Part shown: piece by piece, positions 8,631-63,595 of the stretch
Position numbering within the stretch: the stretch's first letter is position 1
Layout: every line of letters begins with the position of its first letter
Source: Minisyncoccota bacterium
Lineage (GTDB): Bacteria > Patescibacteriota > Minisyncoccia > Phycocordibacterales > CALRHW01
Direction of reading: 5' to 3'
DNA: 64,000 bases
NCBI GenBank assembly: GCA_046350795.1
Contig: JAXLZT010000001.1
Location: 2,411 to 66,410 of the forward strand
The notes under the pieces: model-generated
Database searches by the model: none
Seen by the model: the letters and a program-made list of their open reading frames with translations, nothing else
Told to the model about the DNA's origin: nothing
Position numbers and translations under genes: made by a program

Positions 8631-8690
8631 TATTTATTGATTATACTAGCAAAAAACTCGTTTGAATAATGCTTTTGTGATACGAAAAAA

Positions 8691-8806: not shown

Positions 8807-9064
8807 TTAACCTTTTTTATTAGAAGAAACCTTCACTTTCTTCTCTTTCTTTGGAATAGCCTCTGACTTTGTGCGTCGAGATTTGAATTTTTCTACACGT
8901 CCAGCTGTATCAAGCACCTTTTCAGCACCAGTGTAAAATGGATGACAAGCACTGCAAATTTCCACCTCGATTTTCTCTTTTGTTGAGCCGAGTGTAAATT
9001 TGTTTCCACAGGCACATACTATGGTTGCCTCAGGAAAATATGTAGGATGTAACTCTTTCTTCAT
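8807..9064 (-). CDS. rpmE: 50S ribosomal protein L31 (zinc-ribbon type) with Lys-rich C-terminal tail
   Basis: [23 protein letters not shown]...[10 protein letters not shown]. Confidence 0.85.
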
Positions 9065-18999: not shown

Positions 19000-19093
19000 G
19001 ATCTTATTGTAACATTTTCAATATTATTATAGAATCACCGTTGAAATGTTCTCGACGTAGAGAGCAATACGTAAGTTCACAAGGAGGAACGGT

Positions 19094-19681
19094 ATGGGTA
19101 CAACAACACCAGACAAAACCGGTCCTGTGGAGATGAAGACCGGACTCAGTCTGAGCAGGTGTATTCCCCAGATCGCATCTGGGATCGTCGCGGAGGAAAA
19201 TGTGGCGAGGATCATCACCGCTACCAAGTACAACAGCGAGGAGAAGTGGAAACTCGCTGAAGACAAGCTCGCGAATGGTGACTGGGCAGCACATCCCGAG
19301 GCGGTGAACATTCTCCGGAGACTTCGTGTCGCCGGCAAGATCGTTCAGCCCCTCCTCGACAAGGGTCAGAAACCTGTTCTGCCAACTGATGGCAGGATCT
19401 GGATCTCTGAAGACGAAGAAGAAGATCTGCAGTGGACAACAGCTATCCCGGTTTCCGAGAAGGCTTCTCCCAGCCCAGCTGTCACTACTGATCCGATTGA
19501 AGTCATGGACGATCCCGCCCCAACGACGGCAAAGGCTCGTGCCACCACACCATCGGCCACCCGTACGACCCCACCCGTACGCGACATGCCACCCGCCACA
19601 CCAAAGGTGACTGGATGGAGGAGTTTCTTCGCCATCCCCAACTGGATCCGTCTGAGGTCGAAGAGGTCGAAACACAAGTGA
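19094..19681 (+). CDS. Hypothetical protein (195 aa) with Pro/Thr-rich C-terminal half, high-GC island
   Basis: Strong SD AAGGAGG 7 nt upstream; terminator downstream; GC ~55%. Confidence 0.55.
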   Translation: MGTTTPDKTGPVEMKTGLSLSRCIPQIASGIVAEENVARIITATKYNSEEKWKLAEDKLANGDWAAHPEAVNILRRLRVAGKIVQPLLDKGQKPVLPTDGRIWISEDEEEDLQWTTAIPVSEKASPSPAVTTDPIEVMDDPAPTTAKARATTPSATRTTPPVRDMPPATPKVTGWRSFFAIPNWIRLRSKRSKHK

Positions 19682-19726
19682 ATCACCTCGACATTCGACC
19701 AAAACCATCGCGAGACAAGGACCCAC

Positions 19727-25539: not shown

Positions 25540-26502
25540 TTAGATTGATGTCTTAGCGATCTTTCGATCTGGTGTTTTTACATTCCACACGAGTCCCAAC
25601 AAACGGAAGGTGCAGATGATGTAATAACTCGGATCGATTTCCCACCAACGATGTTGCACCGTGGCAGATACCTGATCGTAGTGATGGTTGTTGTGCCAAC
25701 CCTCACCACCAGTAATGATCGCAACCCACCAACTATTGCGTGACTCATCTTTTGACTTGTAGTTTTGGTAACCCCACATGTGTGTCGCCGAATTGACGAG
25801 CCAAGTGGAGTTCCAAAAAAACACAGTCCTCACCGCAACACCCCAAACAACGAAGCTGAGTGCCGTCTGGTAAGCTTTGGTGATGCCGTCTTGCGCAAAA
25901 CCAATAACAAAACCGACAGCAAAGATGACGATGGCGTGCAAGAGCCACACCAAAAGCCAACGGTTGTGCCTGTGCATCCACACGTGGAAAGGATCTCTCT
26001 GCAAATCTCTGGTGTTTTGGTACACTGCCTCTCCCTCAATCGCCTTATTGAAAAAGAGGAGCCAACCAATGTGAGACCACAAGAAATTTACTAGTGGCGT
26101 ATGCGGATCGGGTTGTGTGTCGGAATGATGATGATGCCTGCGATGTACAGACACCCACCAAAGACTCGAACCTTCAAGGTTGCAGAAAGCGAGCATTGTG
26201 AGAAGTCGCTCAAACCACCTTGAACATTCAAAACTACGGTGAGTGAGTAGACGGTGGTAGCAGATGCCGATGCCACACCAACCAATGGGCACGATCAGCG
26301 CAAACATCAAGGCAAGAGCCGAGCCAGAAAAAAAACTCGGCACCAATCCGCACAGCGCAAGTACACCACCCACAACAACAAACAAGTGCAGTGAGATGAT
26401 GAAGATCGCGCTTACCCAGTTGGGTGATATCACACCCTCAGGTATCTGTAGTGGATCCACGTTAGAGGGATCACGCACAGAATCAGCTTTAATAACACTC
26501 AT
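25540..26502 (-). CDS. Membrane fatty-acid (acyl-CoA/acyl-lipid delta-9-type) desaturase, high-GC island
   Basis: Three His boxes HRLLTH, HRRHHHHSD, HNNHHYD; 4 TM; SD AAGGAG 9 nt upstream; GC ~55%. Confidence 0.8.
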   Translation of the reverse strand: MSVIKADSVRDPSNVDPLQIPEGVISPNWVSAIFIISLHLFVVVGGVLALCGLVPSFFSGSALALMFALIVPIGWCGIGICYHRLLTHRSFECSRWFERLLTMLAFCNLEGSSLWWVSVHRRHHHHSDTQPDPHTPLVNFLWSHIGWLLFFNKAIEGEAVYQNTRDLQRDPFHVWMHRHNRWLLVWLLHAIVIFAVGFVIGFAQDGITKAYQTALSFVVWGVAVRTVFFWNSTWLVNSATHMWGYQNYKSKDESRNSWWVAIITGGEGWHNNHHYDQVSATVQHRWWEIDPSYYIICTFRLLGLVWNVKTPDRKIAKTSI

Positions 26503-26556
26503 GGTGATCGTCTCCTTGGATAGATCTAAGAGGAAATGGAAGGAACGCAAACTATA

Positions 26557-33702: not shown

Positions 33703-34377
33703 CTACTTGCTCGTGGGCGGTTGCGTCGCAGGGCTCTGGGTGATGGAGCAACTCGAGGCTCCAGGCCCCCCGGCAGAACAGGAGGCGCTGCTGGCCTGAC
33801 TGCCGAGCACGCACTTGCACACCGGGTAGATGCCACTCGAGTTGAAGTTGCAGCAGGCGAAGTAGGCACTGTTGCCACAGGTCACCTGACACGTCTGAGG
33901 GCCCGCCGATGACGGGTTTCCATCAGCCGACGTCGAAACGTCAACGAAGGATCCCACGACCACCATGTTCCCAGCTCCGAGCTTGAGAACTTCCGGCTGA
34001 GACCCACCCATGATGAACTCGACGTCGGTGTGGCCACGATTCCAAATGAGCCCAGAGACAATCTCCTCGCCCATGGGAACCATGTCCGGGAACGTGTAGA
34101 CACGCCCAGACACCGTCGTGAGACGCCCGATCACGGTCAAGAGACCGGCGTCGTTCACGTACAGGGGTGCGGGGACGACGATGTACTCAGCCACGTTGAA
34201 CGTGAGGCCGATCGTTGCCATTTCCTCCGGCGACACCGAGGTCGCCCAGAGAAGGGTCCGCAGATCCCGGTCTTCCACCTTGCCGTTGGTAGAAGCGGTG
34301 GACGTCGAAGTGGTGATGAACGCCACCAGGCCCAGCACCAAGAGAACGAGAGCAGACAACGTCCGTGTCCGATTCAT
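33703..34377 (-). CDS. Secreted Cys-rich hypothetical protein, high-GC island
   Basis: Signal peptide (MNRTRTLSALVLLVLGLVAF); C-terminal Cys-rich tail; GGAG SD; GC ~58%. Confidence 0.55.
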   Translation of the reverse strand: MNRTRTLSALVLLVLGLVAFITTSTSTASTNGKVEDRDLRTLLWATSVSPEEMATIGLTFNVAEYIVVPAPLYVNDAGLLTVIGRLTTVSGRVYTFPDMVPMGEEIVSGLIWNRGHTDVEFIMGGSQPEVLKLGAGNMVVVGSFVDVSTSADGNPSSAGPQTCQVTCGNSAYFACCNFNSSGIYPVCKCVLGSQASSASCSAGGPGASSCSITQSPATQPPTSK

Positions 34378-34479
34378 GTGAATTCTCCAGTGAGTTACAG
34401 GATGCTTTGGCCTCAACGCACCTTGCGTCAAGTAGATTCCAATGTGCATCTAAAATTCACGATACGCTCATATAAAACT

Positions 34480-38730: not shown

Positions 38731-39735
38731 CTAAATCTTGTCTTTGTGTTCAGAAAAATAGACATTCTTTTTAGCTATGCCCATTTTGGCAAATTTTTTC
38801 AAGAGAAAGTCTTTCATCTCTTTTTCGCTTTTAAAAGCAATCTTCTTTTTTCCATCTAGCACCGCCCATTGTCCCACCTTTCGAAGTACATCCATTTTGC
38901 TTAACACTATGCGATTGACGCCGTTCATCCTTATCGCGCGCTCCATCAGATTTAGATTCATCCAGTTGCACTGACGAGGTCGGCCAGTAGTAGATCCGTA
39001 TTCCTCACCTACTTTTCTGATTTCTTCAAAAATTTTGTCTGCAGGCTCAAACTTTTTGTTGCCGACATAGGTCTCGTATATTTTTGCTACACCCCAGACA
39101 TCTTTTATTGCAGTAAAAGGCACTGCGTTTAAAATCATACCGCCCACTGTACAGTGGCTAGATGTTACAAAAGGATAATCTCCCCAATCAATATCGAGTC
39201 CAAAACCCTGAGCACCCTCACCGAGCACATATGTATTTTTATTTTTTACATGAAACTCTTCGTATAGGTCTATGAGATACGGCTTTAGCTCTGGCACACT
39301 CTCAGCTCGGATACCTGTGCGAGCATATTTGTTTCTGTAGGTCGGACCATTGCCACGTTTTGTCGTACCTATCTTACTATCAGAACCGTCTTCATTTTTA
39401 TTTTCTTCTGTGATGATATGAGTATTTTTTGCAATGAAAATTTTGCCTTTTGTCTTTATACCACCAGCCTCTAGCTCTTTTATCTCTTTCATAAACTGCA
39501 CTGGATCGAGCACACAGCCCGGACCAATGACAGATTTTATTCCAAAAAACACACCGACAGGTATGTGATGCGTCACAAACTTTTTCCCCTTATGATAAAT
39601 AGTGTGGCCCGCATTGCACCCTCCGTTGTAACGCAAAACGTGTGTAAACTTTTTAGTCTTGCACAAATGATGCGCTACTTTTCCCTTCGCACAATCTCCA
39701 TATTGCAAATCAACAATTACGTCTGTTTTAATCAT
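38731..39735 (-). CDS. purA: Adenylosuccinate synthetase (short form)
   Basis: P-loop-like QYGDCAKGKV, GTTKRGNGP, GSTTGRPRQ. Confidence 0.85.
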   Translation of the reverse strand: MIKTDVIVDLQYGDCAKGKVAHHLCKTKKFTHVLRYNGGCNAGHTIYHKGKKFVTHHIPVGVFFGIKSVIGPGCVLDPVQFMKEIKELEAGGIKTKGKIFIAKNTHIITEENKNEDGSDSKIGTTKRGNGPTYRNKYARTGIRAESVPELKPYLIDLYEEFHVKNKNTYVLGEGAQGFGLDIDWGDYPFVTSSHCTVGGMILNAVPFTAIKDVWGVAKIYETYVGNKKFEPADKIFEEIRKVGEEYGSTTGRPRQCNWMNLNLMERAIRMNGVNRIVLSKMDVLRKVGQWAVLDGKKKIAFKSEKEMKDFLLKKFAKMGIAKKNVYFSEHKDKI

Positions 39736-39852
39736 ACGAAAGAATCATATCAGAAAAAAACTGTTTTTAAAATTGGCTTGGCAAAAGTGACTTTATAACA
39801 TAATCTATACCTTGGATAGGAAACACCACCAAACAACAGGAGAAAGCTACCA

Positions 39853-40656
39853 ATGGGGACAAACGGAAAATCAAATCCGGACCGCTCCAAAGAGAGCGAC
39901 TCCGTGGATGTCTGGAAGCAGTACAAAGAGAATCCGAGCCAAGAGCTACGGAACAAACTCATACTCATGCATTACGGGGTTCTACTCGGCCACGCAAAAC
40001 GACAACACATCAGACTGAGGAAAATACTTTCCGTTGAAGAACTCGCGTCATACGGGCTCGATGGACTGATAGATGCCATTAATGCGTTTGATCCTGAACG
40101 TGGCATCAGGTTTGAGACATTCTGTTCACCCAGGATCTGGGGCTCGATGATAGACGGAATCCGCGAGATGGACTGGATCCCTCGCCTAGTCCGATCTAGA
40201 ACACGCAAGATTGAATCTGCGAGGGATCGTCTCAAACTGTCCTTGGGTCGAGATCCAACCCCCGAGGAAATACGAGAGGAACTCAAACTCAGCCCTGAAC
40301 AATATGAGAAAGAGAGTGGTGATTCACAACCAAAACACACCAACTCCCTCTCTCGTGAAGTGTGTGGGAATCAGCAAGGTGGCCGTGAGGTCTCACAAAT
40401 AGACTTCATCGAAGACGATGGATGTGAGAAGCCTGGAGATGAAGCCGATAGACAGGACCTGAGAAGATTCATGACTCGGGGGCTAGACCAGAAAAGTAGG
40501 CTCATCATCATCCTTCATCACTTCGAAGGCTTCAGCATGAAGGAGGTTGGTGAAATACTCTTCATGAGTGAGTCTCGGATATCTCAAATGCACACCGCAG
40601 CAATAGACGTGATTAGGTCAAACCTCGCACTGAAAGAGCTGTTGGACAAGCGTTGA
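39853..40656 (+). CDS. RNA polymerase sigma factor, sigma-70 family (FliA/WhiG-like group 3), high-GC island
   Basis: Region 2 (YGLDGLIDAINAFDPERGIRFETF), region 3, region 4 HTH (FSMKEVGEILFMSESRISQMHTAAIDVIRSNL); GGAG SD; GC ~55%. Confidence 0.8.
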   Translation: MGTNGKSNPDRSKESDSVDVWKQYKENPSQELRNKLILMHYGVLLGHAKRQHIRLRKILSVEELASYGLDGLIDAINAFDPERGIRFETFCSPRIWGSMIDGIREMDWIPRLVRSRTRKIESARDRLKLSLGRDPTPEEIREELKLSPEQYEKESGDSQPKHTNSLSREVCGNQQGGREVSQIDFIEDDGCEKPGDEADRQDLRRFMTRGLDQKSRLIIILHHFEGFSMKEVGEILFMSESRISQMHTAAIDVIRSNLALKELLDKR

Positions 40657-40678
40657 GAACAAAAAACAAAAACGCCTT

Positions 40679-40710
40679 TGGGCCGCCACGAAAGTGGCGG
40701 CCCATTTCAC
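40679..40710 (+). terminator. Intrinsic terminator (GGGCCGCCAC-gaaa-GTGGCGGCCC)
   Basis: 10-bp GC stem plus ATTTCACAT. Confidence 0.55.
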
Positions 40711-40791
40711 ATCATGTTATTGCCAAAAAAATATCATTGTGATTATATTGTGGGTGAAAAGTACACGCACAACCAACCCAGGAGCAACGAA

Positions 40792-41718
40792 ATGCCCAGC
40801 AAAAGCACCAGTGCAACCAAGTCAGAAAACGGTCAAGAACAGACCGGACAAATGCTCACGGTGGATATCAATCGTATTCGTCCGTTCAAAGAACAGCCGA
40901 GAACGTACTTCGAATCGACAGGTATCACCAACCTATCGAAAAGCATCAGGAACAAGCAGCGCCTCCCGATTTCCGTCATGCGCATTGAGGATGATCCCAG
41001 GCATGACTTCGAAATCATTGACGGAGAGCGTCGATTTCGAGCCGCAAAGGAGGCCGGGGTCAACAGGATTCTCGTTTGGATCAAGACCATCAGAAGCAAA
41101 GATGAGCAGTTCATCGACTCTGTGGTCTCCAACTTCGGACGAGAAAACCACACGGTTTTGGAGAAGGTAAACGCCTTCACTCGACTGCGACAGTGGTACA
41201 GCGCAGAAGAGATCGCTGAGCTGTGTGGTTGTCACTTCACGACCGTCTACCAGTACTTGTCACTTTCGAAGTTGGTGCCGGAAGCGTTGAAGAGGCTCGA
41301 TCCGAGCCTGCCAGAAGATGAGATGCTCAACTTCTCCACAGCAGCAAGACTCGCAACCCTTGATCCAGAGATCCAGCTCGACGTGCTTGAGCAGATCAGT
41401 GGCAAGAAGATGCCACATCGAGAAGTTCGACATTTCGTCCGGGCAAGAGCGCACGAGTCTGGAAAGCTGTCCAGCAGCAAGACGAAACCTGACAAGTATC
41501 GTCACAGACACTGGAACATGTTCACAGGATTTGTGAACCGGAGCGTTCAGGAGGCGAAAAGCATTGCCGACATGCCTGACAGCATGTTCGTGGAGGCTGT
41601 CACATCACGAACGAGAGCAGAAATGGAGTATTTCGAGAAGGAGGCCAACGCCCTCATTCGTGAGATCGAGAAACTCAAGAACAAGGTGATGAGAGCCAAG
41701 AAAACATCCTCGAAGTAG
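40792..41718 (+). CDS. ParB-like protein (ParB/Srx N-domain with GERRFRAA CTP-binding box, HTH, C-terminal coiled coil), high-GC island
   Basis: IIDGERRFRAAKEAG; HTH (SAEEIAELCGCHFTTVYQYL); start set at MPSKS with AGGAG SD. Confidence 0.75.
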   Translation: MPSKSTSATKSENGQEQTGQMLTVDINRIRPFKEQPRTYFESTGITNLSKSIRNKQRLPISVMRIEDDPRHDFEIIDGERRFRAAKEAGVNRILVWIKTIRSKDEQFIDSVVSNFGRENHTVLEKVNAFTRLRQWYSAEEIAELCGCHFTTVYQYLSLSKLVPEALKRLDPSLPEDEMLNFSTAARLATLDPEIQLDVLEQISGKKMPHREVRHFVRARAHESGKLSSSKTKPDKYRHRHWNMFTGFVNRSVQEAKSIADMPDSMFVEAVTSRTRAEMEYFEKEANALIREIEKLKNKVMRAKKTSSK

Positions 41719-41756
41719 TGGCGACCCAGAGGATTAGAAATCAACCAAAGCCATTC

Positions 41757-41790
41757 GGGGCCCCGCAATCTGTCGCGGGCCCCTTTTAAT
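41757..41790. terminator. Bidirectional intrinsic terminator (GGGGCCCCGC...GCGGGCCCC)
   Basis: GC stem plus TTTTAATTTT. Confidence 0.65.
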
Positions 41791-41797
41791 TTTATAT

Positions 41798-42199
41798 TTA
41801 CCCTACCATCTGCGTACAATGAGCACATCTAGTCGCTTCGAGAGGAATTTCGCTCAAACACTCTTTGCATTTTTTTGTAGTCGGATCTGCTGGTGGAGCC
41901 TTGCGAGAACGAGATACGAGCATGTTCATTGGCTTTATAACAAAAAAGAAAATAGCACCTGCGACCAGAATAAAAGAAATAACTGCGTTTATAAGATGTC
42001 CGATCATAAACTGACTGCCATTTATGGTAAAAAACCAGCCAGAAAAATCTGGCACTTTTGCAATCGCTGAAATAAATGGCGTGAGCAGATCTGACACCAG
42101 AGCGTTGACCACCGTACCAAAAGACGCTCCGACCACGACTCCGACTGCCAAATCAATCACATTTCCTCTGAGTAAAAATTGTTTGAATTCTTTTAGCAT
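41798..42199 (-). CDS. mscL: Large-conductance mechanosensitive channel MscL with C-terminal 4-Cys zinc-ribbon-like tail
   Basis: NVIDLAVGVVVGASFGTVVNALVSDLLTPFI; C-terminus CKECLSEIPLEATRCAHC. Confidence 0.85.
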   Translation of the reverse strand: MLKEFKQFLLRGNVIDLAVGVVVGASFGTVVNALVSDLLTPFISAIAKVPDFSGWFFTINGSQFMIGHLINAVISFILVAGAIFFFVIKPMNMLVSRSRKAPPADPTTKKCKECLSEIPLEATRCAHCTQMVG

Positions 42200-42214
42200 A
42201 ATAATTAATTTAAA

Positions 42215-42676
42215 TTATTGGAATATAAAATTCCAAATTCTACTAAACAAACCCACTCGTTTTGTCTGCACTACTGGTTCAGTTTTTTGTTCCACTGGAG
42301 CTGTTTTTACTACTTCTGCCACGGGCTTTTGCACTGGCAAAGTTTTTTTCACCTCAGTTTTTACAGGAGTCATGTTTTTTACCGGAGCCACAATCGGCTC
42401 CACTATCGGTTGCACAGTGGTCTTCTGCTCGATAATTTTTGGCTCTATATATTTCTCTGGTTCATCATATGAAGCACACATGATCATTGATGAATACTGA
42501 ACACTACTATTTCTCCAGCCATCCTTACAAATAACACTACCATCACTATCTCGCCCAGACGCACAACTCACTCCCCCATGACCAGAACACGCTCCGCTCG
42601 TAGCGAAAGCCAAAGTGGGAGTGAGTAAAATAAATGCTAGTACAGTTAGCAATTTTTTCATATTAAGTTTTATCAA
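42215..42676 (-). CDS. Secreted hypothetical protein with Cys-rich N-domain and PV/KT-rich repeats
   Basis: Signal peptide; repeat-like low complexity. Confidence 0.45.
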   Translation of the reverse strand: MIKLNMKKLLTVLAFILLTPTLAFATSGACSGHGGVSCASGRDSDGSVICKDGWRNSSVQYSSMIMCASYDEPEKYIEPKIIEQKTTVQPIVEPIVAPVKNMTPVKTEVKKTLPVQKPVAEVVKTAPVEQKTEPVVQTKRVGLFSRIWNFIFQ

Positions 42677-42820
42677 AATAATTTAAATAAAAATATATTT
42701 GTGGCCCACAAATCTTTGATACTTCAACCAAAGATTCTTTAGGGGGTGAAAACTTCTCCTGCTGGGACCATATCTATCTTATTATCTTTAATATTTTAAT
42801 AGTAAGACAGAATTCAAAAA

Positions 42821-43015
42821 CTATTTATCCTTAGACACAACCACTAAACCATCTTGTGTCAGAGCCCACACAAGAGATATAACCCAACCAACAACAGTAA
42901 AACCTAGAAAAAAATTCAAAGCAAATATTGCGCCTTTATTTCTTTTGCGCTTATTGAAAGCAATAATACTTGGTAAAAAATAAAATAGTATTAATAATAT
43001 GATAAAAATCAACAT
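42821..43015 (-). CDS. Small membrane protein (64 aa, 2 TM)
   Basis: Hydrophobic ORF. Confidence 0.35.
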   Translation of the reverse strand: MLIFIILLILFYFLPSIIAFNKRKRNKGAIFALNFFLGFTVVGWVISLVWALTQDGLVVVSKDK

Positions 43016-43178
43016 GTAATATATTGTATTATAAGAATAACATGAATGAAAGTGCTGGTCGTATCAAACTAGAACCGTAGTCGGTCAAGCTCGGTAAAGT
43101 TATTTTAGCATCTTTTCGTTTTTCAAATCGATGTATCTTGAGCATATAGAAAAACCGTGCTTATATTAGTTCATATTT

Positions 43179-43919
43179 ATGGAATACAGGAAATGGAAAG
43201 ATAACAACATCATCGTCTGCCTGACAAAAAAAGAGATTGGTATATTCCTGAAGCAAGCAAAATGGGAACTAATAGAGAAGATTATGGTGGAGAAGAGGTG
43301 GAGTCTAGCTGATGTAATGGCGGATCAGAAAAAGGTACTGGAAGTTGTCCAGCCAGTTTCTGAGTCTCTTGCTGAAGACAAGGATGAGGTAGAAATATTT
43401 GTCGCCTTCGACTCGATTGTAGATTTCTACAAATCCGACAGTCTAATATGCTTTCCATTGCGGGCAAACTTCAATACAAGTCGAGATACAATAAATAGTT
43501 TTTCAGAACTAAAGAATTCAATCGAGGAAGCAAGTCCTGATGACATTATTATCTTTGATGGTGTCAACTATCGATCCTTTCAAATGAAACGATACCGAGG
43601 AAAGCTTGAGACTCAGGATATCGGTAAATATATTGTCAATAAGATTGAAGGGTACGGCAACCTAGGCGACCGAAATTTGCTCGTCATTCCACAATCTGAT
43701 CTTCCATTCAATATTGATTTTCATGAGCTGCACGATTTCCTAAAGAACGAGAAGCCACCGATTACCGGACAGGTTCTTGTTGGATTCAACGCCAACAACA
43801 AAGAATTCTTACTTAATCAAGTGTACCCAGACCTGAATACTAGTTCTATCCCCATAAGAGAGTCTGCACAAAAACTATCTAAAGTCTGGAGGAAAATGAA
43901 AAACAATAACGATCAGTAG
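43179..43919 (+). CDS. Hypothetical protein (246 aa), upstream partner of the DUF4238 gene
   Basis: Stop at 43917-43919 followed 2 nt later by the DUF4238 start (operon); GC elevated relative to flanks. Confidence 0.55.
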   Translation: MEYRKWKDNNIIVCLTKKEIGIFLKQAKWELIEKIMVEKRWSLADVMADQKKVLEVVQPVSESLAEDKDEVEIFVAFDSIVDFYKSDSLICFPLRANFNTSRDTINSFSELKNSIEEASPDDIIIFDGVNYRSFQMKRYRGKLETQDIGKYIVNKIEGYGNLGDRNLLVIPQSDLPFNIDFHELHDFLKNEKPPITGQVLVGFNANNKEFLLNQVYPDLNTSSIPIRESAQKLSKVWRKMKNNNDQ

Positions 43920-43921
43920 AT

Positions 43922-44821
43922 ATGCAAAAGCGACACCACACAGTACCTCGTTGCTATCTTGAGCAGTTCATTGATACGAACGGTGATATTTGGAGTCTAG
44001 ATACAAGCAATAAAATATTTAATACTAAACCGAACAACATTCTCGTCGAAAGCCACTTCTACCGGATAACGCTAAAGGACGGGAGTAAAAGTGTGGTTGT
44101 TGAAAATACACTTGCCGACATTGAGGGCAGATACGCCGAAATATTCAGGAATAAACTTTCTCAAGACAAGTTCCTTACATCTGAGGAACGTGCGTATGCG
44201 TCTGTGTTCTTGGCATCTTTACTGCATCGAACTAGACCAAATAGAGAGGGTCTGAGAGGTATGCTCTCTAGCCTCAAGAAATCGGCTGAAGAATGGAGGG
44301 AGCAACTAAAATGGCTTTCACCGGAACAAAAGCGTATCATAAGTGCAACCCCCTCTACTGGAGAGTCCATAAATATTGAGGATCTGGAGAAAGGACTGGA
44401 GAACTGGGATGAGCATCATTCTGCAAGCTTGATTGACCACATTACACACACAGCACAAGTACTTTTCAATATGAATTGGTCAGTCTGGAAGTATCCGTCT
44501 GGTCAAGGAAGCTTCCTAACTTCTGACGACCCGTTCGTGATGAGGCGTCCTGCAGCAGAATTGAAATACGGGAAAAATGCTATCGGTAGCCAAGCGGGTC
44601 TTCTTTTTAAAGATGTAGAGATAACCATTCCCCTTTCCAAAGAGCGCCTTCTCCTAGCCGGTTGGATACTAGAACGCGATAGCTATATCGAAGCTACAGC
44701 TGACACAGCAGAAGCAATGAACCAGCGGACAATTTTGGCTTCGTCAAAACACGTTATCGCTTGCAATAAGAAGCAGTTGGAAGAAGTCATAAAAAAGTAT
44801 CCTCCTCTCCCCAAGCCATAA
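43922..44821 (+). CDS. DUF4238 domain protein (anti-phage-associated family)
   Basis: N-terminus MQKRHHTVPRCYLEQF matches the DUF4238 signature (HH-VP--YL--F). Confidence 0.7.
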   Translation: MQKRHHTVPRCYLEQFIDTNGDIWSLDTSNKIFNTKPNNILVESHFYRITLKDGSKSVVVENTLADIEGRYAEIFRNKLSQDKFLTSEERAYASVFLASLLHRTRPNREGLRGMLSSLKKSAEEWREQLKWLSPEQKRIISATPSTGESINIEDLEKGLENWDEHHSASLIDHITHTAQVLFNMNWSVWKYPSGQGSFLTSDDPFVMRRPAAELKYGKNAIGSQAGLLFKDVEITIPLSKERLLLAGWILERDSYIEATADTAEAMNQRTILASSKHVIACNKKQLEEVIKKYPPLPKP

Positions 44822-44871
44822 CAATCCTGAAATAAAACGCCTCTCGAGTGCGATAACCCATCTCAACCTAG

Positions 44872-44942
44872 CTGCCGATCAGGGACTCGAACCCCAATTA
44901 ACCGCTCCAGAGGCGGTCGTCCTACCATTAGACGAATCGGCA
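44872..44942 (-). tRNA. tRNA-Gln (anticodon CTG)
   Basis: TGCCGAT acceptor, ACCGC-CTCTGGA-GCGGT anticodon arm, GGGGTTCGAGTCCC T-arm. Confidence 0.8.
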
Positions 44943-50312: not shown

Positions 50313-50420
50313 GAAACCGAGGCGTTGTGTCTCGGTTCAATTGTGTTCACAAGTGGTACTTGTGAACATTTACAGGGTTGCATCAGGTTGTTGCAACCAC
50401 AGTGTGGCTGTGCCACAGAG
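50313..50420 (+). promoter_or_regulatory. Cluster of four consecutive palindromes/hairpins upstream of a high-GC gene (candidate operator array or structured leader)
   Basis: AACCGAG-GCGTTGTGT-CTCGGTT (50315-50337); GTTCACAAGT-GGT-ACTTGTGAAC perfect 23-bp palindrome (50345-50367); GTTGCA-N9-TGCAAC (50377-50397); CCACAGTGTGG / GTGGC-TGT-GCCAC (50397-50416). Confidence 0.5.
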
Positions 50421-50426
50421 GAAAAA

Positions 50427-50945
50427 ATGAACAAGAATCCTATACAGATCGCCAGCGAGGAGTACGTGGCTGATTTCCCCTTCATCGAACACTGGGTGAG
50501 GCAGTACTACAACTCGCTCCGAACAATCACTGTAAAGAGATTGGATTTGGAGGCGCTACAACGGGTGGCCGAACTCTTCTATTTGTTCTTCTTTACTCAC
50601 TGGACACAAATCATCTGTGTCAGCAAAGATAAGAAGATCATGTGTGAGGCTCAGTTTGGCGGAACATTCTTTCACATAACTCCCTGGTGGGCTCCATGGA
50701 GGTGGAAGATTTGCAAAGTCGTAGGACATTCAGCTCTAGACACCCTTATGGGGCTCAATGAGCAAGATCTGGCTCGTGTCGGATATGTACTAATGGTCAC
50801 GGGCATAGACAACGGAAGTGTCAACATCATAATCTACAAGCTTCCAAAAGACCGCACTCTCTCGGAGTTTGTGGATGATGAGAAAGCCAGAATCAAATCC
50901 GAGGCTCGAGTAGAAATTGCTCGTGAAGCTTCGGTTGTTCGATAG
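50427..50945 (+). CDS. Hypothetical protein (172 aa), high-GC island
   Basis: GAGGA SD; Trp-rich (PWWAPWRWK); no family recognised. Confidence 0.5.
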   Translation: MNKNPIQIASEEYVADFPFIEHWVRQYYNSLRTITVKRLDLEALQRVAELFYLFFFTHWTQIICVSKDKKIMCEAQFGGTFFHITPWWAPWRWKICKVVGHSALDTLMGLNEQDLARVGYVLMVTGIDNGSVNIIIYKLPKDRTLSEFVDDEKARIKSEARVEIAREASVVR

Positions 50946-57642: not shown

Positions 57643-58227
57643 TTAATAAACGGTTCGCAGAGCACGCTCAAGTCGACGTGAATTGTTGATATCACAAGTA
57701 TTATACCCACGTGATTCTATAGTAGTAATGATAATACCAGATGGCTCACCCAACAACGGATCACTTGGTCGCTTATTTACACGCACTATAGCACAAGGTC
57801 CAGTAATATCACCGTTTCCGTTTATGAAAAACTGAAAAATACTGTTTACTTGACCACTACCATCTGCGTCACCGCCAAGCTTTGCTGTAGTAGGTGTGGG
57901 TGGAGTAGGTACAGTGTACACCTCAGAAACACCATTGATAATTTCATTTCCATTACAATTAATGTCGTTAGCGGCATTTCCATTTGTGTAAAAGGCACTC
58001 TGTCCATTTGGATTTCTAGGATTTTTTGTATCCCAAAAAAGAGCACACTCTACACCAGTATCTGCAGCATAAAAAGCAGTCTGTGAATCCTTTCCTACAT
58101 ATGAAAGCAAAAGTTCTTTTAAAGATACATTGGAAAGTGCATATGTCACAAGAAGAAGGGTGCTCGTAATAATCACAGCCATAAGCAATGCAAATCCTTT
58201 TTCTTTTTTAATGTTTTTTATTTTCAT
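57643..58227 (-). CDS. Type IV minor pilin / pseudopilin-like protein
   Basis: Prepilin-type N-terminus KGFALLMAVIITSTLLL. Confidence 0.6.
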   Translation of the reverse strand: MKIKNIKKEKGFALLMAVIITSTLLLVTYALSNVSLKELLLSYVGKDSQTAFYAADTGVECALFWDTKNPRNPNGQSAFYTNGNAANDINCNGNEIINGVSEVYTVPTPPTPTTAKLGGDADGSGQVNSIFQFFINGNGDITGPCAIVRVNKRPSDPLLGEPSGIIITTIESRGYNTCDINNSRRLERALRTVY

Positions 58228-58228
58228 T

Positions 58229-58852
58229 TTAATAATCCAAATCTTTAAGTTGTTGCCAGTTGTACAAATTTTCTGACACTTCCACAGATCTATCTATACC
58301 GTTTTGTTTCCAATTGACCCTAACTTTTACTACAATCTGATTTTCACCATTATCCTGAGGATCACCGTCTTCTCTAAATATACTTATCTCTCTGTAAAAA
58401 GAACTCTGTGTCTTATTTAAATTTGATTCATATTGAAATTGTCCTGTTATATCATTCATGTAAAAAAGTGGGCATCCTTCTGCTGGACACGGCAAAGGTT
58501 TTCCATATAGTGGATTGCCTTCTGGATCAGAAAGTTCACCTGTACTATCAACAAAACACTCCTGGTCACCGTAACAAGGATCATTTTGGTCTTTCGCAAA
58601 ACCATTAAGCCAGGAAACATCTTCTGATCTATTTTTTAACATTTCCAAACCATTATTGTCTCTCAAGTGTCTTATTTGTTCTATTCCCTCTTGCGCCAAA
58701 TAGTAAGCAGTGATTTTGTTTTTAGCATAATTTGTAGACTGCAAACTTGATTGAGCGACAGCAAAAGTACCAGTAATAGAAAGAAGTAAAATAGATATAG
58801 CCACCAAAGCTTCGATAACTGTAAATCCTTTTTTTAGAAAATAATTTTTCAT
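58229..58852 (-). CDS. Type IV minor pilin-like protein
   Basis: N-terminus KKGFTVIEALVAISILLL (G/FTxIE prepilin motif). Confidence 0.65.
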   Translation of the reverse strand: MKNYFLKKGFTVIEALVAISILLLSITGTFAVAQSSLQSTNYAKNKITAYYLAQEGIEQIRHLRDNNGLEMLKNRSEDVSWLNGFAKDQNDPCYGDQECFVDSTGELSDPEGNPLYGKPLPCPAEGCPLFYMNDITGQFQYESNLNKTQSSFYREISIFREDGDPQDNGENQIVVKVRVNWKQNGIDRSVEVSENLYNWQQLKDLDY

Positions 58853-58855
58853 AAA

Positions 58856-59545
58856 TTATTTGTATACTATATCCAAAGATCTCTGGGTAATGGTCGTCTG
58901 TATATTAAACTGTGTTTTTGTAGACTCTTTTACACCAGCATATCCGCGCACCACCATTACCACACGTGGCTGTCTAGTATCTCCATCTGCAAAACCAGTT
59001 TGTTTATCTACAATAAGTGGCTCTGTATCAAAAACATAAAAAGATAGACTTTCTATATCCACCTCTGGAGAAGTAATCGAAACAAAAGAATCATCTTCTG
59101 TGCTATTTATAGATCTTTCTACTCGACCAATGTTTGTTTCTGGATCATTTACAAATCTATATCTAATTACGTCATTCACATTTCCGTCACCATCTAAATC
59201 TTTATTTGATAACATTGTTATTTCTTTTCCTGGATCAGTATTTTGACCTGCATTTTGATTACAATCAGCATTTTCGCCAATATAATCTCCTGGATTATTT
59301 CCATTTGGATACAAACTGTCTGCTATACCACAAAAATATCCTTTGCTCACAGTCATATTTTTTGCCATACCGTTTATCACCAAATTTAGATTATTTATCA
59401 CCGACTTCATGCTCTGATTTTTTTTGTTTACGTCTAAGATAGATAAAACGGCCGTAATACTAATGAGCATTACAATAGTAAAGATAGAGACCGCTACAAG
59501 CATTTCTATCAAGAGGAAACCATTTTTTTTATTTCTTTTTATCAT
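58856..59545 (-). CDS. Type IV minor pilin-like protein
   Basis: N-terminus KNGFLLIEMLVAVSIFTIVM. Confidence 0.65.
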   Translation of the reverse strand: MIKRNKKNGFLLIEMLVAVSIFTIVMLISITAVLSILDVNKKNQSMKSVINNLNLVINGMAKNMTVSKGYFCGIADSLYPNGNNPGDYIGENADCNQNAGQNTDPGKEITMLSNKDLDGDGNVNDVIRYRFVNDPETNIGRVERSINSTEDDSFVSITSPEVDIESLSFYVFDTEPLIVDKQTGFADGDTRQPRVVMVVRGYAGVKESTKTQFNIQTTITQRSLDIVYK

Positions 59546-59565
59546 TATCTTATTATCAAACCTAC

Positions 59566-60279
59566 CTATTCAAAAGCATTGCCTGGATCACCATTATCGA
59601 TAGGATCACCCGCCTCTTCAGACAAATATACAAGACACGAATCATTTACTATAGAAATTTGTCCTGTGGTATAAACATCTATTTGTTTTTCTCTACCTTG
59701 TGGCGACATGAGACATACCCTCACGGCTTGTGAAGCATGCCCACTACTAAACTCAAATCTAGCGTCTGGATCTGGTCGAGTAAATGTAATATCCAACTTG
59801 TCTCTTTTTACGTTGCCATTTCCATCATTAACGTCACAATACCAACCACTACTAGTACCAGCCTGCTCACATAAAGCGAATATATAATTGCCCCTACCGA
59901 TATCTGTCTTTTTTAATACCACATCTTGCATAGCATTATATTTTCCATCATGAACACCAAAAGCATCGGCAACATCAGCAAAAAATATAAAACTTAGATT
60001 ATCTTTACTTTTTCCAGTCGCAGTAGCGCCGAAATGTATACCGTATGGAGTATTAAATCTTTCTTCTTCTGGAGTATTTACACCCTCTTTAAAATCTCGC
60101 GCGCTCACCCCATATACCTGTGCCTGACGCAAAGCGAGTGCAACTTCATAGGATAAGTTTGTTATTTCTAGATTGTCGTTAAATTTTTGATGATTATAAA
60201 TAATAACAGCAGAAACAACGGCCATAATGGAAAAAGAGACCATTAGTTCAATCAGTGTAAATCCTTTTTTATATTTCAT
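59566..60279 (-). CDS. Type IV minor pilin-like protein
   Basis: N-terminus KKGFTLIELMVSFSIMAVV. Confidence 0.65.
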   Translation of the reverse strand: MKYKKGFTLIELMVSFSIMAVVSAVIIYNHQKFNDNLEITNLSYEVALALRQAQVYGVSARDFKEGVNTPEEERFNTPYGIHFGATATGKSKDNLSFIFFADVADAFGVHDGKYNAMQDVVLKKTDIGRGNYIFALCEQAGTSSGWYCDVNDGNGNVKRDKLDITFTRPDPDARFEFSSGHASQAVRVCLMSPQGREKQIDVYTTGQISIVNDSCLVYLSEEAGDPIDNGDPGNAFE

Positions 60280-60288
60280 GAATTTGTG

Positions 60289-61083
60289 CTAAAAAAAAGC
60301 CAAATATTTAGAGATATGAATGATATCCCAACCAAAGAAAAACACGAGCAGAGTACCGATGATAATAAACGGTCCAAAAGGTATTTCACTCTTCATTGTA
60401 AGATTTTTAGAAGACAAAGACAATACGCGACTCAAGATAATGAGCGTCAAACCCACTATCGCACCGATCCAAAAGGCCAATACAAGCGCAGAAATACCGC
60501 GCACAAAACCAAGCATAAAACCTACACCAACGACGATTTTGGCATCACCCAAACCTATCCATCGCCCACCAGACACCAGCCATAAAAGTGCGAAAGGTAG
60601 AGCAAGTATTGGACCAGCTAGAACATCCAAAAGAGAGTTGTTATGTAAGTAAAAAAAAGAGAAGAGAGAGAAAGCTAGCGTCACTGCCCCAAAAATAAAA
60701 GACCAAGAATCTGGAATTATTTTATGCTTAAAATCATAAATACTGATAACAATCAAAATACTGATAACAAAAAAATAATAGAAAATGAGCGGACTCAGAC
60801 CGACGTGTAAAAAAGTAGCCAAGAAAAGGAGTCCAGTGACAAGCTCAACGAGCGGATATTGTAGCGAGATCTTGCTTTTACACGCACTGCATTTACCTCC
60901 AAGAAAAATAAAACTAAACACAGGAATTAATTCATACCAATGAAGTGTTTTGCTACAAGAAAAACATTGTGATCTGCCACGCGCTATAGGCAATCCTGTA
61001 TTATGTCTCAAAGCAACGACGTTTAAAAAACTGCCCACTATAGTTCCAAAAATAAATATAAAAAATGAAATAAGTAAATACAT
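60289..61083 (-). CDS. pilD: Prepilin peptidase (A24 family)
   Basis: N-terminal CFSC...CSAC zinc cluster; multi-TM A24 core. Confidence 0.8.
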   Translation of the reverse strand: MYLLISFFIFIFGTIVGSFLNVVALRHNTGLPIARGRSQCFSCSKTLHWYELIPVFSFIFLGGKCSACKSKISLQYPLVELVTGLLFLATFLHVGLSPLIFYYFFVISILIVISIYDFKHKIIPDSWSFIFGAVTLAFSLFSFFYLHNNSLLDVLAGPILALPFALLWLVSGGRWIGLGDAKIVVGVGFMLGFVRGISALVLAFWIGAIVGLTLIILSRVLSLSSKNLTMKSEIPFGPFIIIGTLLVFFFGWDIIHISKYLAFF

Positions 61084-61089
61084 TAATAA

Positions 61090-61587
61090 CTAATTACAAG
61101 TAACGTCACCCGAAGCTAAATTTGTTGTTATTTCTTTTGATACGCCAGTACTATCTATACACCAAAAATTTCCGTTGCTTGGCAGGGTCACAGTCATGGC
61201 ATATGCATCACCAGTAGATCTGCATGTAATGGTAGATCCCGCTGGATAAAGAGTGTGGCTGGTAAGCTGAAACATCCCCGAAGGCACATCTTCAAAAAAT
61301 ATCACGTCTGGTCCAGCTTCGGCAGCAAAAACTGATTTAAATATTCGCCATCCAACTTCTGGACCTATAGTCCGACACAAATCTGTATCATCGCCATAAT
61401 TTTCATGCTCTGAGTAATAAAGAGCTGCGGCTTTTTTTACACTATCCAACTGAGATTTTACTGCACTGTCCCGTGCTTTTATACGAGCAGTTTGCAATGA
61501 AGCAAGCACCACAGATGAGAGTAGGCCAATAATAGCGATAACGACTAGCAATTCGATAAGTGTAAATCCTTTTTTTACAGATTTCAT
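61090..61587 (-). CDS. pilA: Type IV major pilin (PilA-like)
   Basis: MKSVKKGFTLIELLVVIAIIGLLSSVVLASL; start set at MKSVKK. Confidence 0.8.
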   Translation of the reverse strand: MKSVKKGFTLIELLVVIAIIGLLSSVVLASLQTARIKARDSAVKSQLDSVKKAAALYYSEHENYGDDTDLCRTIGPEVGWRIFKSVFAAEAGPDVIFFEDVPSGMFQLTSHTLYPAGSTITCRSTGDAYAMTVTLPSNGNFWCIDSTGVSKEITTNLASGDVTCN

Positions 61588-61632
61588 TACAAATAATTCT
61601 AACACACAAATCTTCACATTAATCCACACAAC

Positions 61633-61660
61633 AAAAAACCGCCTTTGGGCGGTTTTTTGT
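61633..61660 (-). terminator. Intrinsic terminator (AAAAAACCGCC-tttg-GGCGGTTTTTT)
   Basis: Hairpin with flanking A/T tracts downstream of the second pilin gene. Confidence 0.65.
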
Positions 61661-61681
61661 TTCTATAAAATCAAGAAATGA

Positions 61682-62215
61682 TTAACATTTAACTGAACCG
61701 TTTGCAGGACCAGGAGCCTTTGGTGTAATTTCGCCAGCAAAACCACTACTGTCTATACACATAGCTTTAGCAGTGTTTGACAACACAACCTGAATGAAGT
61801 ATTCATCAGCATCAGCTGTACATGTAACAGCGCCTGCTGTAGATGGAGCTGTACCACCGCCACCGACAGTACCAAGAGTGTAATTATCACCACCCCCACC
61901 ACCACCAGTCAAAGCAGTACCAACCAAAGATCTTGAAACAGAATCCAATGATGTAAGAACAGCGGAAGCATTTGTTCCTGCTACCGGCGGATTAGCATCT
62001 GTAGGACAAGTGTTTGCGTATGAACCAGTATTTGAATCATAAGCCAATTCAGCTCCAGCTCTAGCCTGGTTTAGACCAGCCTTAGCAGCCGCATCCTTTC
62101 CTTTTGATCGAGCAGTATTCAAAGAAGCCAAAACAACTGATGACAAGATACCAATGATAGCGATAACAACTAGCAATTCGATAAGTGTGAAACCTTTTTT
62201 AGTATTTTTAAACAT
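61682..62215 (-). CDS. pilA: Type IV major pilin (PilA-like), Gly-rich variant
   Basis: MFKNTKKGFTLIELLVVIAIIGILSSVVLASL; C-terminal Cys pair. Confidence 0.8.
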   Translation of the reverse strand: MFKNTKKGFTLIELLVVIAIIGILSSVVLASLNTARSKGKDAAAKAGLNQARAGAELAYDSNTGSYANTCPTDANPPVAGTNASAVLTSLDSVSRSLVGTALTGGGGGGDNYTLGTVGGGGTAPSTAGAVTCTADADEYFIQVVLSNTAKAMCIDSSGFAGEITPKAPGPANGSVKC

Positions 62216-62392
62216 ATTAAACTTTTTATTAATAATTTTTATAACTTTATAATGTAAATTATTTTCTGCTTCCCTCCGCGGGAAGGGTATAAATCGACCG
62301 CTTTGTCCCTCGTCGGGAAACGTTTCTTAAAAACGTATGTATGTATTATATCTCAAATAAACAAGTGCAACAAAGACCGTGTGGATAACCGC

Positions 62393-63595
62393 CTAAAATG
62401 AAGAAGCAATGTTGTAAATAGGCATCAAAACAGATGCGAGGAGAGTTCCTACACCAAGACCAAGACCCACCACCATTACTGGCTCAATCAAATCAACAAG
62501 CGTGTCCACAGCAGCGACCACTTCTCGCTGATAAAATTTTGCAAGAGTTTTTAAAATATTTCCAAGCTCTCCAGTCTCCTCTCCCACTTTTATCATCTGT
62601 GTCATGATGCTTGGTATTTCTACAAACTGACTAAATGCTGTAGATAGCGAGCTACCACCCTTTACCGCCTCCAAGCTTCTATCCAAAATATCTTTATAAA
62701 TATCATTACCTACCACGGCAGAAGTAGTTTCGATCGCCTTTACCATTGATATACCACTGAGCACCATGGTGTTCATGTTGTCTGCGATACGAGAGAGGTA
62801 GAGCTTGCGATACAAATCACCTAGATATGGCACGCTAAGCTGAAACTGATTGAAAGCTTGTTTACCCTGCTTTGTATCTATGTATTTTTTAAATAAAAAT
62901 CCGCCAATAATAAGTGCGATTACAAAATACAATCCGTAGTTTATAAAAAAGCCACTCAAACCAAGAACGATTTTTGTATATATAGGTAGCTCTTGACCAG
63001 ATTCTTCTAGTATTGGTGCTATTTTTGGAATGATCACCGTAAACATCAAAGCCATCACGCCCACGAAAGCGACCACAACAAAAGCCGGATAAATAAGTGC
63101 ATGCTTTGCTTTTGATGACACTTCATATGAACGATCCAGATAGTCAGCAAGGTATCCAAAAGTTTGGTCTAGCTTACCAGACTCTTCACCAGATCGGACC
63201 ATATTGATATAGAAATCAGAAAAAATATGTGGATGTTTTTCGAGTGCTTTTGAAATAGCGCTTCCCTCCTGAATATCATCTGCCACCTTACTTAGAGCAT
63301 CGCGAAGCTGAGTATTTTCTACTTGGGCTGCAAGAAGTTTGAAAATACGTAGCGCAGACACCTGTGCTTCAAAGAGTGTTGCCATCTGTCTAGAAACTAT
63401 GACAATATCCTTATTTGAAACACGATTCAAAAAGGGAATCTTTTTCAAAAAAGATCCGCTACGAACTGGTTTTATATACGAAATCACAAGTCCACGCCCT
63501 TGAAGCAAAGTAACAGCTGTGTCCAAACTAGATGCTTCTACAGATCCATCTTTTGTTTCACCTGTATTATCTATTGCTTTATAGTTGAAGAGCAT
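62393..63595 (-). CDS. pilC: Type IV pilus assembly platform protein PilC (GspF family)
   Basis: Two GspF repeats; 3 TM. Confidence 0.85.
   Translation of the reverse strand: MLFNYKAIDNTGETKDGSVEASSLDTAVTLLQGRGLVISYIKPVRSGSFLKKIPFLNRVSNKDIVIVSRQMATLFEAQVSALRIFKLLAAQVENTQLRDALSKVADDIQEGSAISKALEKHPHIFSDFYINMVRSGEESGKLDQTFGYLADYLDRSYEVSSKAKHALIYPAFVVVAFVGVMALMFTVIIPKIAPILEESGQELPIYTKIVLGLSGFFINYGLYFVIALIIGGFLFKKYIDTKQGKQAFNQFQLSVPYLGDLYRKLYLSRIADNMNTMVLSGISMVKAIETTSAVVGNDIYKDILDRSLEAVKGGSSLSTAFSQFVEIPSIMTQMIKVGEETGELGNILKTLAKFYQREVVAAVDTLVDLIEPVMVVGLGLGVGTLLASVLMPIYNIASSF

Follow-up and report, generated by a model that had tools for sequence, protein, structure and literature searches.

Orphan ParB-fold proteins carried by mobile DNA are emerging as regulators that act on transcription over long distances, with KorB, BisD, VirB and HerB as examples. 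For KorB (PMC11790492), BisD (PMC12409273) and HerB (PMC13370423), clamp proteins of this fold with a regulatory role on mobile DNA have been described. The report nearest to a coupling with sigma factors is that of ParB-CTPase folds fused to Sigma70 domains (PMC12704722), and our full-text literature searches found no previous description of a pair formed by a sigma factor gene and a ParB-like gene. In this study, we analyzed such a pair at positions 39812-41790 of a 64-kb stretch of DNA (the window) from the chromosome of a Candidatus Paceibacterota bacterium, a member of the candidate phyla radiation (CPR). The segment had been pointed out in an initial annotation as a GC-rich island encoding a sigma factor and a stand-alone ParB-like protein. 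All coordinates are positions within the window, and L004, L052 and similar designations are labels of comparison loci.

Our preferred reading, to which we give about an even chance of being correct, is that the segment represents a horizontally exchanged, strain-variable regulatory cassette in a CPR chromosome, with two separately transcribed genes forming a functional pair. Both genes are on the plus strand and are located, as initially annotated, between purA (38731-39735) and mscL (41798-42199), which are both on the minus strand. The cassette comprises the following features in this order:

39778-39806, plus strand: P1, a sigma-70-type promoter-like site (TTGGCA, 17 nt, TAATCT) upstream of the sigma factor gene, supported by conservation
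39853-40656, plus strand: gene of a group-3 (FliA/WhiG-like) alternative sigma factor of 267 aa, preceded by the Shine-Dalgarno (SD) sequence AGGAG at 39838-39842
40679-40704, plus strand: T1, an 11-bp GC hairpin between the two genes (-25.8 kcal/mol, z = -5.0)
40720-40749, plus strand: P2, a sigma-70-type promoter-like site (TTGCCA, 18 nt, TATATT) for the ParB-like gene, matching 10 of 12 consensus positions
40792-41718, plus strand: gene of an orphan ParB/Noc/KorB-type protein of 308 aa with a ParB_N domain, a helix-turn-helix (HTH) and a three-helix C-terminal region, preceded by the SD sequence AGGAG at 40780-40784
41757-41793, plus strand: T2, a hairpin plus U-run terminator downstream of the ParB-like gene (-19.3 kcal/mol, z = -2.7, followed by TTTTAATTTT)

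The segment has a GC content of 49.9%, compared to 39.9% for the whole window, and is the most GC-rich 2-kb window of the 64 kb (z = 3.2). The best 200-bp windows within it reach 53-54%, so that the value of ~55% given in the initial annotation was too high. The excess is greatest at the third codon positions of both genes, where the GC content (GC3) amounts to 53% for the sigma gene and 64% for the ParB-like gene versus 33 ± 10% for the other genes of the window, which bears out the compositional anomaly noted initially. The island is not unique in this respect; at least four further single genes of the window have a GC3 of 50-75%, and the host thus carries several GC-rich islets. A search for flanking repeats or att sites around the island yielded short repeats at chance level only, one of them 13 nt long with an 85% match (39702 and 41733), the left copy of which is located within the conserved purA. 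From the initial annotation, the two genes, their SD sequences, the flanking genes and the anomaly as such were confirmed, while besides the GC value the placement of the hairpins had to be corrected: These had been described as flanking the island, but one is located between the genes, the other follows the ParB-like gene, and none is present on the purA side.

Comparison with close relatives revealed three states of the locus: sigma plus ParB, sigma only, and neither gene. The following features were derived from these comparisons:

39760-44870, no strand: strain-variable region from purA to tRNA-Gln, which holds the island and contains different genes in L052, L053 and L055
39988-40665, plus strand: recombined patch of ~670 bp inside the sigma gene with ~20% nucleotide divergence from L053
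40709-41798, plus strand: ParB cassette (P2, gene, T2), found in the window but lacking in sister strains, which differ from it by a clean 1,090-bp indel

In the sister strains L053-L056, purA, the sigma gene and mscL are present without the ParB-like gene, the flanks being ~99% identical; between L053 and the window, identity amounts to 97.8% over 10.9 kb. The alignments of L053 and L055 run up to 40708 and resume at 41799, with 16 unrelated bases replacing the 1,090 bp. Since the distant cassettes described below all have both sigma and ParB, the ParB-less state is most simply a deletion. The ParB-less sigma allele carries 24 derived substitutions versus nine in the allele of the window (p = 0.014), and in the otherwise invariant region 4.2 the motif LSESRVSQ is changed to IGASRVSQ. 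Also the sigma gene itself differs in a mosaic fashion. The window and L053 do not differ in the 117 nt upstream of the gene or in its codons 1-45; mismatches begin at 39988 and number 134 up to the stop codon, T1 is identical again, and the flanks show ~99-100% identity. Synonymous divergence (dS) in this stretch is 0.67 and thereby about tenfold that of purA (0.065), and the ratio of nonsynonymous to synonymous divergence (dN/dS) is 0.21. By this pattern, the divergent stretch is a recombination patch, and the low dN/dS indicates that the sigma factor is under purifying selection. Diversity-generating hypermutation was considered for the patch and rejected, the substitution spectrum being dominated by transitions without preference for any particular base.

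In L052, whose purA region has 92% nucleotide identity to that of the window, neither gene is present, and both are also absent next to purA in L050 and L051. Homology to L052 ends at ~39760, with ~24 nt still to go to the start codon of purA on its upstream side, and is regained at the tRNA-Gln gene (44871-44942). In L052 (3962-5532), mscL lies downstream of purA on the same strand, and in the window it lies upstream of purA; the L052 mscL is only 75% identical, which points to a local rearrangement or a replacement. An empty site in the strict sense, with purA directly abutting mscL in the same orientation, was not found; what was found were the sigma-only loci L053 and L055 and the rearranged, sigma-less L052. 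Sigma orthologues do occur at the same locus in related genomes, but these genomes have ~40% GC and the gene has ~50% GC there too; the pattern named in the initial annotation as refuting, with both genes at this locus in relatives of high overall GC, was thus not observed. The absence from the locus in L052 and the variable presence of ParB among sister strains support the initial view of the island as foreign and accessory.

The pair itself is not restricted to this lineage. A sigma gene directly followed by a ParB-like gene was found in five other metagenomic contexts (L004/L005, L006, L027/L057, L028 and L059), and in L020 the order is reversed, the ParB-like gene there preceding a sigma gene that has regions 2 and 4. 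The pairs in L027/L057, L028 and L059 came from scans seeded with the ParB alignment and from later look-ups. Beyond the sister strains, the two closest relatives of the sigma factor (48% identity) are encoded in L004/L005 and L006, each followed by a ParB_N/HTH_ParB gene, the products of which are 38-41% identical to the ParB-like protein of the window over the full length. Conversely, among the five closest relatives of the ParB-like protein (38-45% identity), every one having upstream sequence is preceded by a sigma gene. The identities of both proteins co-vary: L004, L006 and L057 share 58-66% (sigma) and 70-79% (ParB) with each other, and the window shares 45-49% and 38-42% with them. P1, P2, the hairpin between the genes, the start codons and the SD sequences are kept in most pair loci, with P1 in the form TTGsCA-17-TAATCT. 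On the basis of the conserved linkage, the co-varying identities and the case of reversed order, the sigma and ParB-like genes probably form a conserved functional pair acting in one pathway, in line with the initial suggestion of a regulatory module.

Conservation is likewise what supports the individual signals. The P1 block (CTTGCCAAA ... TTGTAATCTCT) is kept in L004, L006 and L027 although the proteins are only ~48% identical; its -10 hexamer matches 3/6 positions and is under the threshold of a consensus scan, so that the evidence for P1 is conservation and not consensus strength. T1 is identical in L053 and L055, and hairpins are present at the equivalent place in L004, L006, L027 and L059. 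Termination at T1 may be partial, as its U-run is weak. Sites resembling P2 (TTGCyA-18-TAwAT type) are found in L006, L027 and L059, with the -10 hexamers TAAATT, TATATT and TATATA. T2 abuts the stop codon of the convergent mscL.

The initial annotation had regarded the island as a remnant or cargo of a plasmid, a phage or an integrative and conjugative element (ICE). In its stronger form, that of a decayed prophage, plasmid or ICE in which ParB was the partition protein of the element and the sigma factor its late-gene regulator, with no joint function now, this explanation is unlikely in our view, but several points favor it. A relative of the ParB-like protein adjoins the portal gene on the P22-like phage contig L012, PHROG ParB and phage sigma families match, and the variable region by tRNA-Gln also holds a superinfection-immunity gene. 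Furthermore, a tyrosine recombinase gene is located directly upstream of the pair in L006 and L057, and a serine recombinase and a transposase gene within ~5 kb in L004. Set against this is the survival of the same pair in six different contexts, with promoters and hairpin kept in most copies; random decay would not spare the same two genes in every case. Also the dN/dS of 0.21 argues against decay. No integrase, replication or structural gene is present in the island and no other phage or plasmid gene in or beside it, and in L057 the pair resides in compositionally uniform DNA of ~50% GC among housekeeping-type genes (NifS, ClpB). When the ParB-like protein was used in a tblastn search of 50,697 phage and 72,556 plasmid records, no match exceeded 32% identity, and a scan of the IMG/VR viral contigs for it gave nothing. 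On the contig L012, which has 62% GC, the ParB relative (E about 1e-29) is encoded directly after the portal gene, within 5794-8924.

The distant loci in part contain fuller cassettes. In L004, L006 and L057, a third conserved gene for 180-188 aa without Pfam match is located downstream of the ParB-like gene; neither this gene nor the upstream tyrosine recombinase has a counterpart in the window. The additional genes of these fuller cassettes are located at 5809-6117 (minus strand) and 6316-6882 (plus strand) in L057, 5117-5659 in L004 and 3075-3250 in L006. The third gene product is 42% identical between L004 and L057, and L057 also contains an open reading frame (ORF) of 102 aa on the opposite strand that resembles sigma region 4.

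Regarding the origin of the pair, the L004 cassette forms an island of 52-54% GC in flanks of ~40% GC. Together with the uniformly ~50% GC surroundings in L057, this suggests that the pair entered the lineage from a donor of ~50% GC, and it appears to be still reshuffled by recombination. The nearest pairs are on contigs of ~50% GC, and the nearest relatives with ParB only are in other CPR genomes. Such ParB-only relatives occur in many CPR classes and on the P22-like phage contig, with a GC3 often, but not always, far from that of the host. The actinobacterial donor considered initially is not supported: The nearest named relatives of the sigma factor are FliA/WhiG proteins of Planctomycetota (41-44% identity), and the relatives of the ParB-like protein come from CPR genomes, metagenome contigs and the phage contig.

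Inheritance without any transfer was also weighed, i.e. a vertically inherited pair whose GC excess results from amino-acid composition or selection on the DNA. GC at the first codon position is high in both genes alike, and some ParB relatives match the GC3 of their host, as in Harrisonbacteria with 35% versus 34%. The excess nevertheless peaks at third codon positions, close relatives are polymorphic for the locus, dS of the sigma patch is tenfold that of the flanks, and an independent island of the same composition exists in L004. In view of these observations, vertical inheritance is hardly probable at all, and the horizontally exchanged cassette stays our preferred reading.

The predicted sigma factor matches the Pfam domains Sigma70 r2 (residues 36-108), r3 (117-194) and r4 (210-255), all above the cut-offs. 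It has no region 1.1 and, as initially annotated, belongs to group 3 by its architecture. Its best NCBIfam matches are WhiG and FliA_WhiG; the score for FliA_WhiG (TIGR02479) of 179.1 bits is below the cut-off of 189.6. The N-terminus MGTNG is common to the homologues, and the motifs SESR(I/V)SQ in region 4.2 and FET(F/Y)C(S/A)PRI in region 2 are found both in this protein and in FliA of Planctomycetota. No flagellar (flhF/flhG, FlgM) or sporulation context for the sigma factor was found in the window, and, in agreement with the initial annotation, no flagellar genes were among about 50 of the 59 ORFs of at least 150 aa that were screened with Pfam. The true FliA of L007 has flhF and flhG upstream; P0005, the next sigma relative after the pairs, is a true flagellar fliA behind flhF and flhG without a ParB-like gene. 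Matches to sigma-28-type promoters (TAAA-N15-GCCGATAA) were at or below chance in the 64-kb window (16 versus 22 ± 5 expected).

Domain content and fold place the ParB-like protein in the ParB/Spo0J superfamily. ParB_N (PF02195) was matched with 53.1 bits versus a cut-off of 26.3 and TIGR00180 (parB_part) with 77.5 versus 58.45. The motif GERRFRAA, already noted initially together with the HTH, is encoded at 41023-41046, and the HTH_ParB match is borderline (22.0 versus a cut-off of 22.6 bits). The start codon is most likely ATG 40792, which is preceded by the SD sequence and coincides with the beginning of the homologues; TTG 40678 was set aside as start codon on these grounds. For an AlphaFold2 model (predicted local distance difference test score, pLDDT, 87), Foldseek matched Myxococcus ParB-CTPγS, Noc, Caulobacter ParB, KorB and Thermus Spo0J with a probability of 1.0 each, the similarity spanning the first ~220 residues. 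Where ParBs usually have their C-terminal domain, three long helices are predicted (residues 233-305), and ParB_C (PF23552) was undetected here and in close relatives, while the same search found it in more distant canonical ParBs. By an exhaustive HMMER search, the family is sizeable, with 60 representative clusters at E ≤ 1e-30, rising to 1,685 at E ≤ 1e-10, and many of the matches align over the whole length including the C-terminal part. Ten relatives with N-terminal extensions were inspected, one of which is fused to three HTH_31 domains and another to an SNF2/ResIII helicase; a Rosetta-stone fusion to a sigma domain was looked for within the family and rejected, these ten relatives having none.

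Boxes I (QPR) and II (GERRFRA) for nucleotide binding are intact, whereas box III reads SNFGR in place of ENLQR across the family, with Asn and Arg kept and the Glu equivalent to E111 of Bacillus subtilis ParB replaced by Ser. Hydrolysis of cytidine triphosphate (CTP) by B. subtilis ParB depends on both E78 (in GERR) and E111 (in ENLQR), while binding and clamp closure do not, and E111Q abolishes hydrolysis with binding retained (PMC8494293). Since the second of these residues is replaced, we infer from the motif that the ParB-like protein binds nucleotide with slow or no hydrolysis.

Three defining features of ParABS systems are lacking, namely an adjacent ParA, parS and ParB_C. In agreement with the initial annotation, a phmmer search of the window with an FlhG/ParA query gave no ParA/MinD-like ORF, and none was found within ±6 kb of ~40 related ParB loci. 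A search with TGTTNCACGTGAAACA gave one parS match with three mismatches versus 2.6 expected by chance, and thus no parS above chance in the window. Direct reading of the ParB sequence also showed no ParA-stimulating N-terminal peptide of the LG(R/K)GL type. Parallel to these findings, we considered that the protein is a chromosomal ParB which binds a centromere and loads SMC in a cell without ParA, the adjacency to the sigma gene being incidental. Its best matches among solved structures and NCBIfam models (Spo0J, Noc, parB_part) would fit, as would the wide occurrence of related orphan ParBs in CPR genomes. Yet the gene is absent in sister strains with ~99% identical flanks, has a foreign GC3 and keeps its linkage to sigma across contexts and gene orders, no parS in the window and no ParB_C domain were detected, and the ENLQR glutamate is a serine. 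We therefore regard a chromosomal ParB as very unlikely. Since ParA, parS and the ParA-stimulating peptide were not found and the gene is dispensable in sister strains, the role is probably in gene control and not in DNA segregation.

Taking the pair as a regulatory cassette, the following working can be proposed. The host's primary sigma factor would read P1 and P2, the sites of which are seen in the sequence. The newly made sigma factor, going by its family, would redirect core RNA polymerase to a small regulon with a second promoter specificity. Going by motifs and fold, a dimer of the ParB-like protein would bind a specific site via its HTH and close round the DNA as a clamp dependent on CTP or another nucleoside triphosphate, and this clamp would probably be long-lived because the second catalytic glutamate is a serine. 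It would not act as a partition protein, but may regulate the regulon of the sigma factor or the sigma gene itself by silencing or co-activation, as is the case for KorB, BisD, VirB and HerB. KorB also serves partition with the ParA homologue IncC. In some sister strains, the ParB-like gene would then have been lost, and the pair would still be reshuffled by recombination.

Several points weigh against this reading. Neither the window nor the cassettes yielded a target promoter, an operator or a parS-like site, and the window shows no enrichment of sigma-28-type promoters. The cassettes have no conserved palindrome, nor does any k-mer of at least 10 nt occur in four or more of them; GTTCACA-N5-TGTGAAC at 41520-41538 lacks conservation in the homologues. 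The sigma factor persists under purifying selection without ParB in the sister strains, and the two proteins are therefore not strictly interdependent. Because each gene has its own promoter and a hairpin lies between them, co-regulation is not forced. Sigma domains are carried by none (0/10) of the N-terminally extended ParB relatives. The analysis covers 64 kb of a 562-kb contig, and a second parB, a parA or the regulon could lie beyond the window. Finally, the function is deduced from comparative genomics and fold similarity only.

A more specific and decidedly improbable version would be that the ParB-like protein is a nucleotide-gated sliding clamp which acts as mobile co-activator or gatekeeper of the neighboring sigma factor, loading at a site, travelling along the DNA and licensing distant sigma-dependent promoters. 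In phage T4 late transcription, the gp45 sliding clamp activates the gp55 sigma factor. If the idea holds, the cassette would be a bacterial counterpart of this process and a sigma-coupled version of the BisD-CTP clamp, and it would constitute a self-contained transferable unit of sigma factor and clamp. BisC, the partner of BisD, is FlhC-like.

If the two proteins act together at all, a compact transferable unit would bring in both a DNA-clamp regulator and a new promoter specificity at once. The cassette is found in CPR bacteria, in which gene regulation is almost unstudied. The occurrence of sigma plus ParB, sigma only and neither gene in near-identical backgrounds offers a ready comparison for metagenomic and metatranscriptomic data.

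The surroundings of the island were also inspected for functional links. The window is otherwise an ordinary CPR chromosome with genes for PheRS, EF-Ts, S2, a release factor, CTP synthase, FtsEX, DNA ligase, pentose-phosphate and glycolytic enzymes, ribonucleotide reductase and a type IV pilus cluster. This cluster (57643-63595, minus strand) encodes a PilX-like protein, three pilin-like proteins with N-methylation motifs, a prepilin peptidase and PilC. Control of the pilus genes by the pair, as proposed initially, is not borne out: The genes are 16 kb away, none of the sigma-28-type matches, which are at or below chance, lies upstream of them, and no link between cluster and island was found. 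Altogether, the initial interpretation stands in part: the foreign and accessory nature of the island and the sigma-ParB unit were upheld, while the actinobacterial donor, the element remnant and the pilus control were not.

The stretch between mscL and tRNA-Gln (42200-44870 in the window, 12288-20742 in L053) differs between sister strains and carries defence-type genes. In the window, it encodes a DUF4238-Pers match and a superinfection-immunity protein, and in L053 a PtuA/AriA-like ATPase and a Dsr1-like protein of 1,127 aa. The stretch resembles a defence hot spot linked to a tRNA gene, here in a CPR genome. As the pair is located at the edge of this hot spot, a role in anti-phage defence or counter-defence, as component or as regulator, was considered as a further explanation and would fit the DUF4238-Pers match here, the ATPase and the Dsr1-like protein in L053 and the occurrence of ParB-fold proteins such as DndB in defence systems (PMC12704722). 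It is quite improbable, however, since the neighbors in L004, L006 and L057 are not defence genes, no nuclease, NADase or toxin effector domain was found, and PADLOC matches were marginal and partial. These were to MzaA (E = 2e-4) and to mad1 (E = 1e-5), the latter over the HTH only, and membership in a known defence system was rejected.

Among the other GC-rich genes of the window, an ORF of 248 aa (33703-34449, minus strand) has the most extreme composition, with 60% GC, a GC3 of 75% and no Pfam match. It adjoins the 5' part of a major facilitator superfamily (MFS) transporter gene, the start of which is called differently in L001 compared to L002 and L053, and the ORF may represent a further small insert of foreign origin. 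Other single genes, with GC3 values of 50-70%, are located at 15319-15816 (minus strand), 25540-26550 (minus strand), 50325-50945 (plus strand) and 19004-19726 (minus strand); three of these four have no Pfam match and one encodes a fatty-acid desaturase. The host seems to gather single-gene high-GC islets. The neighboring purA (38731-39735, minus strand) encodes a short form of adenylosuccinate synthetase with 334 aa, which matches the Pfam model of 416 positions in two stretches. The 120 listed relatives all have 326-365 aa except one entry of 281 aa that covers 84% of the query; the shortening appears to be lineage-wide.

In comparison with known systems, the sigma factor resembles FliA/WhiG in having regions 2, 3 and 4 without 1.1 and in its best NCBIfam matches, but it is narrowly under the family cut-off, has no flagellar or sporulation context in the window and is paired with a ParB-like gene. 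The ParB-like protein shares the nucleotide-binding domain and HTH fold as well as QPR and GERRxRA with ParB/Spo0J and Noc, with template modelling scores (TM-scores, normalised to the target) of 0.66-0.69 versus Noc (7nfu) and Caulobacter ParB (6t1f). It differs from these in the absence of ParA, the LG(R/K)GL-type peptide, parS and ParB_C, in the SNFGR motif, and in its strain-variable occurrence and foreign composition. KorB of RK2, acting with KorA/TrbA (PMC11790492, PMC13584720), is a ParB-fold plus HTH protein on mobile DNA as well and acts as a CTP clamp that regulates together with a partner, and its structures 8qa8 and 8qa9 were among the Foldseek matches (E about 5e-11). However, its partners are small repressors and not sigma factors, the identity is ~22%, and the C-terminal region is different from the helical one predicted here. 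BisD, acting with BisC on ICEclc, is an orphan CTP clamp that activates distant promoters with a second element-encoded factor (PMC12409273); in contrast to the 2-kb cassette and its sigma partner, BisD carries an activator domain of its own and loads at defined bisS sites on an ICE of ~100 kb. HerB (YfjB) of the F plasmid is a mobile orphan ParB-like protein combining CTP binding, an HTH and a novel dimerisation module, and it reprograms host transcription (PMC13370423), but it has more than 600 residues, is encoded in the plasmid leading region and lacks a dedicated sigma partner. The fusions of ParB fold and Sigma70 domains place both in one polypeptide, as a functional pair would predict; these are reported to bind ATP (PMC12704722). 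With an orphan ParB-fold plus HTH protein, foreign and strain-variable DNA and a linkage to sigma in six other contexts, we infer that the cassette belongs with the ParB-fold regulators of mobile DNA, with the difference that its partner is a sigma factor.

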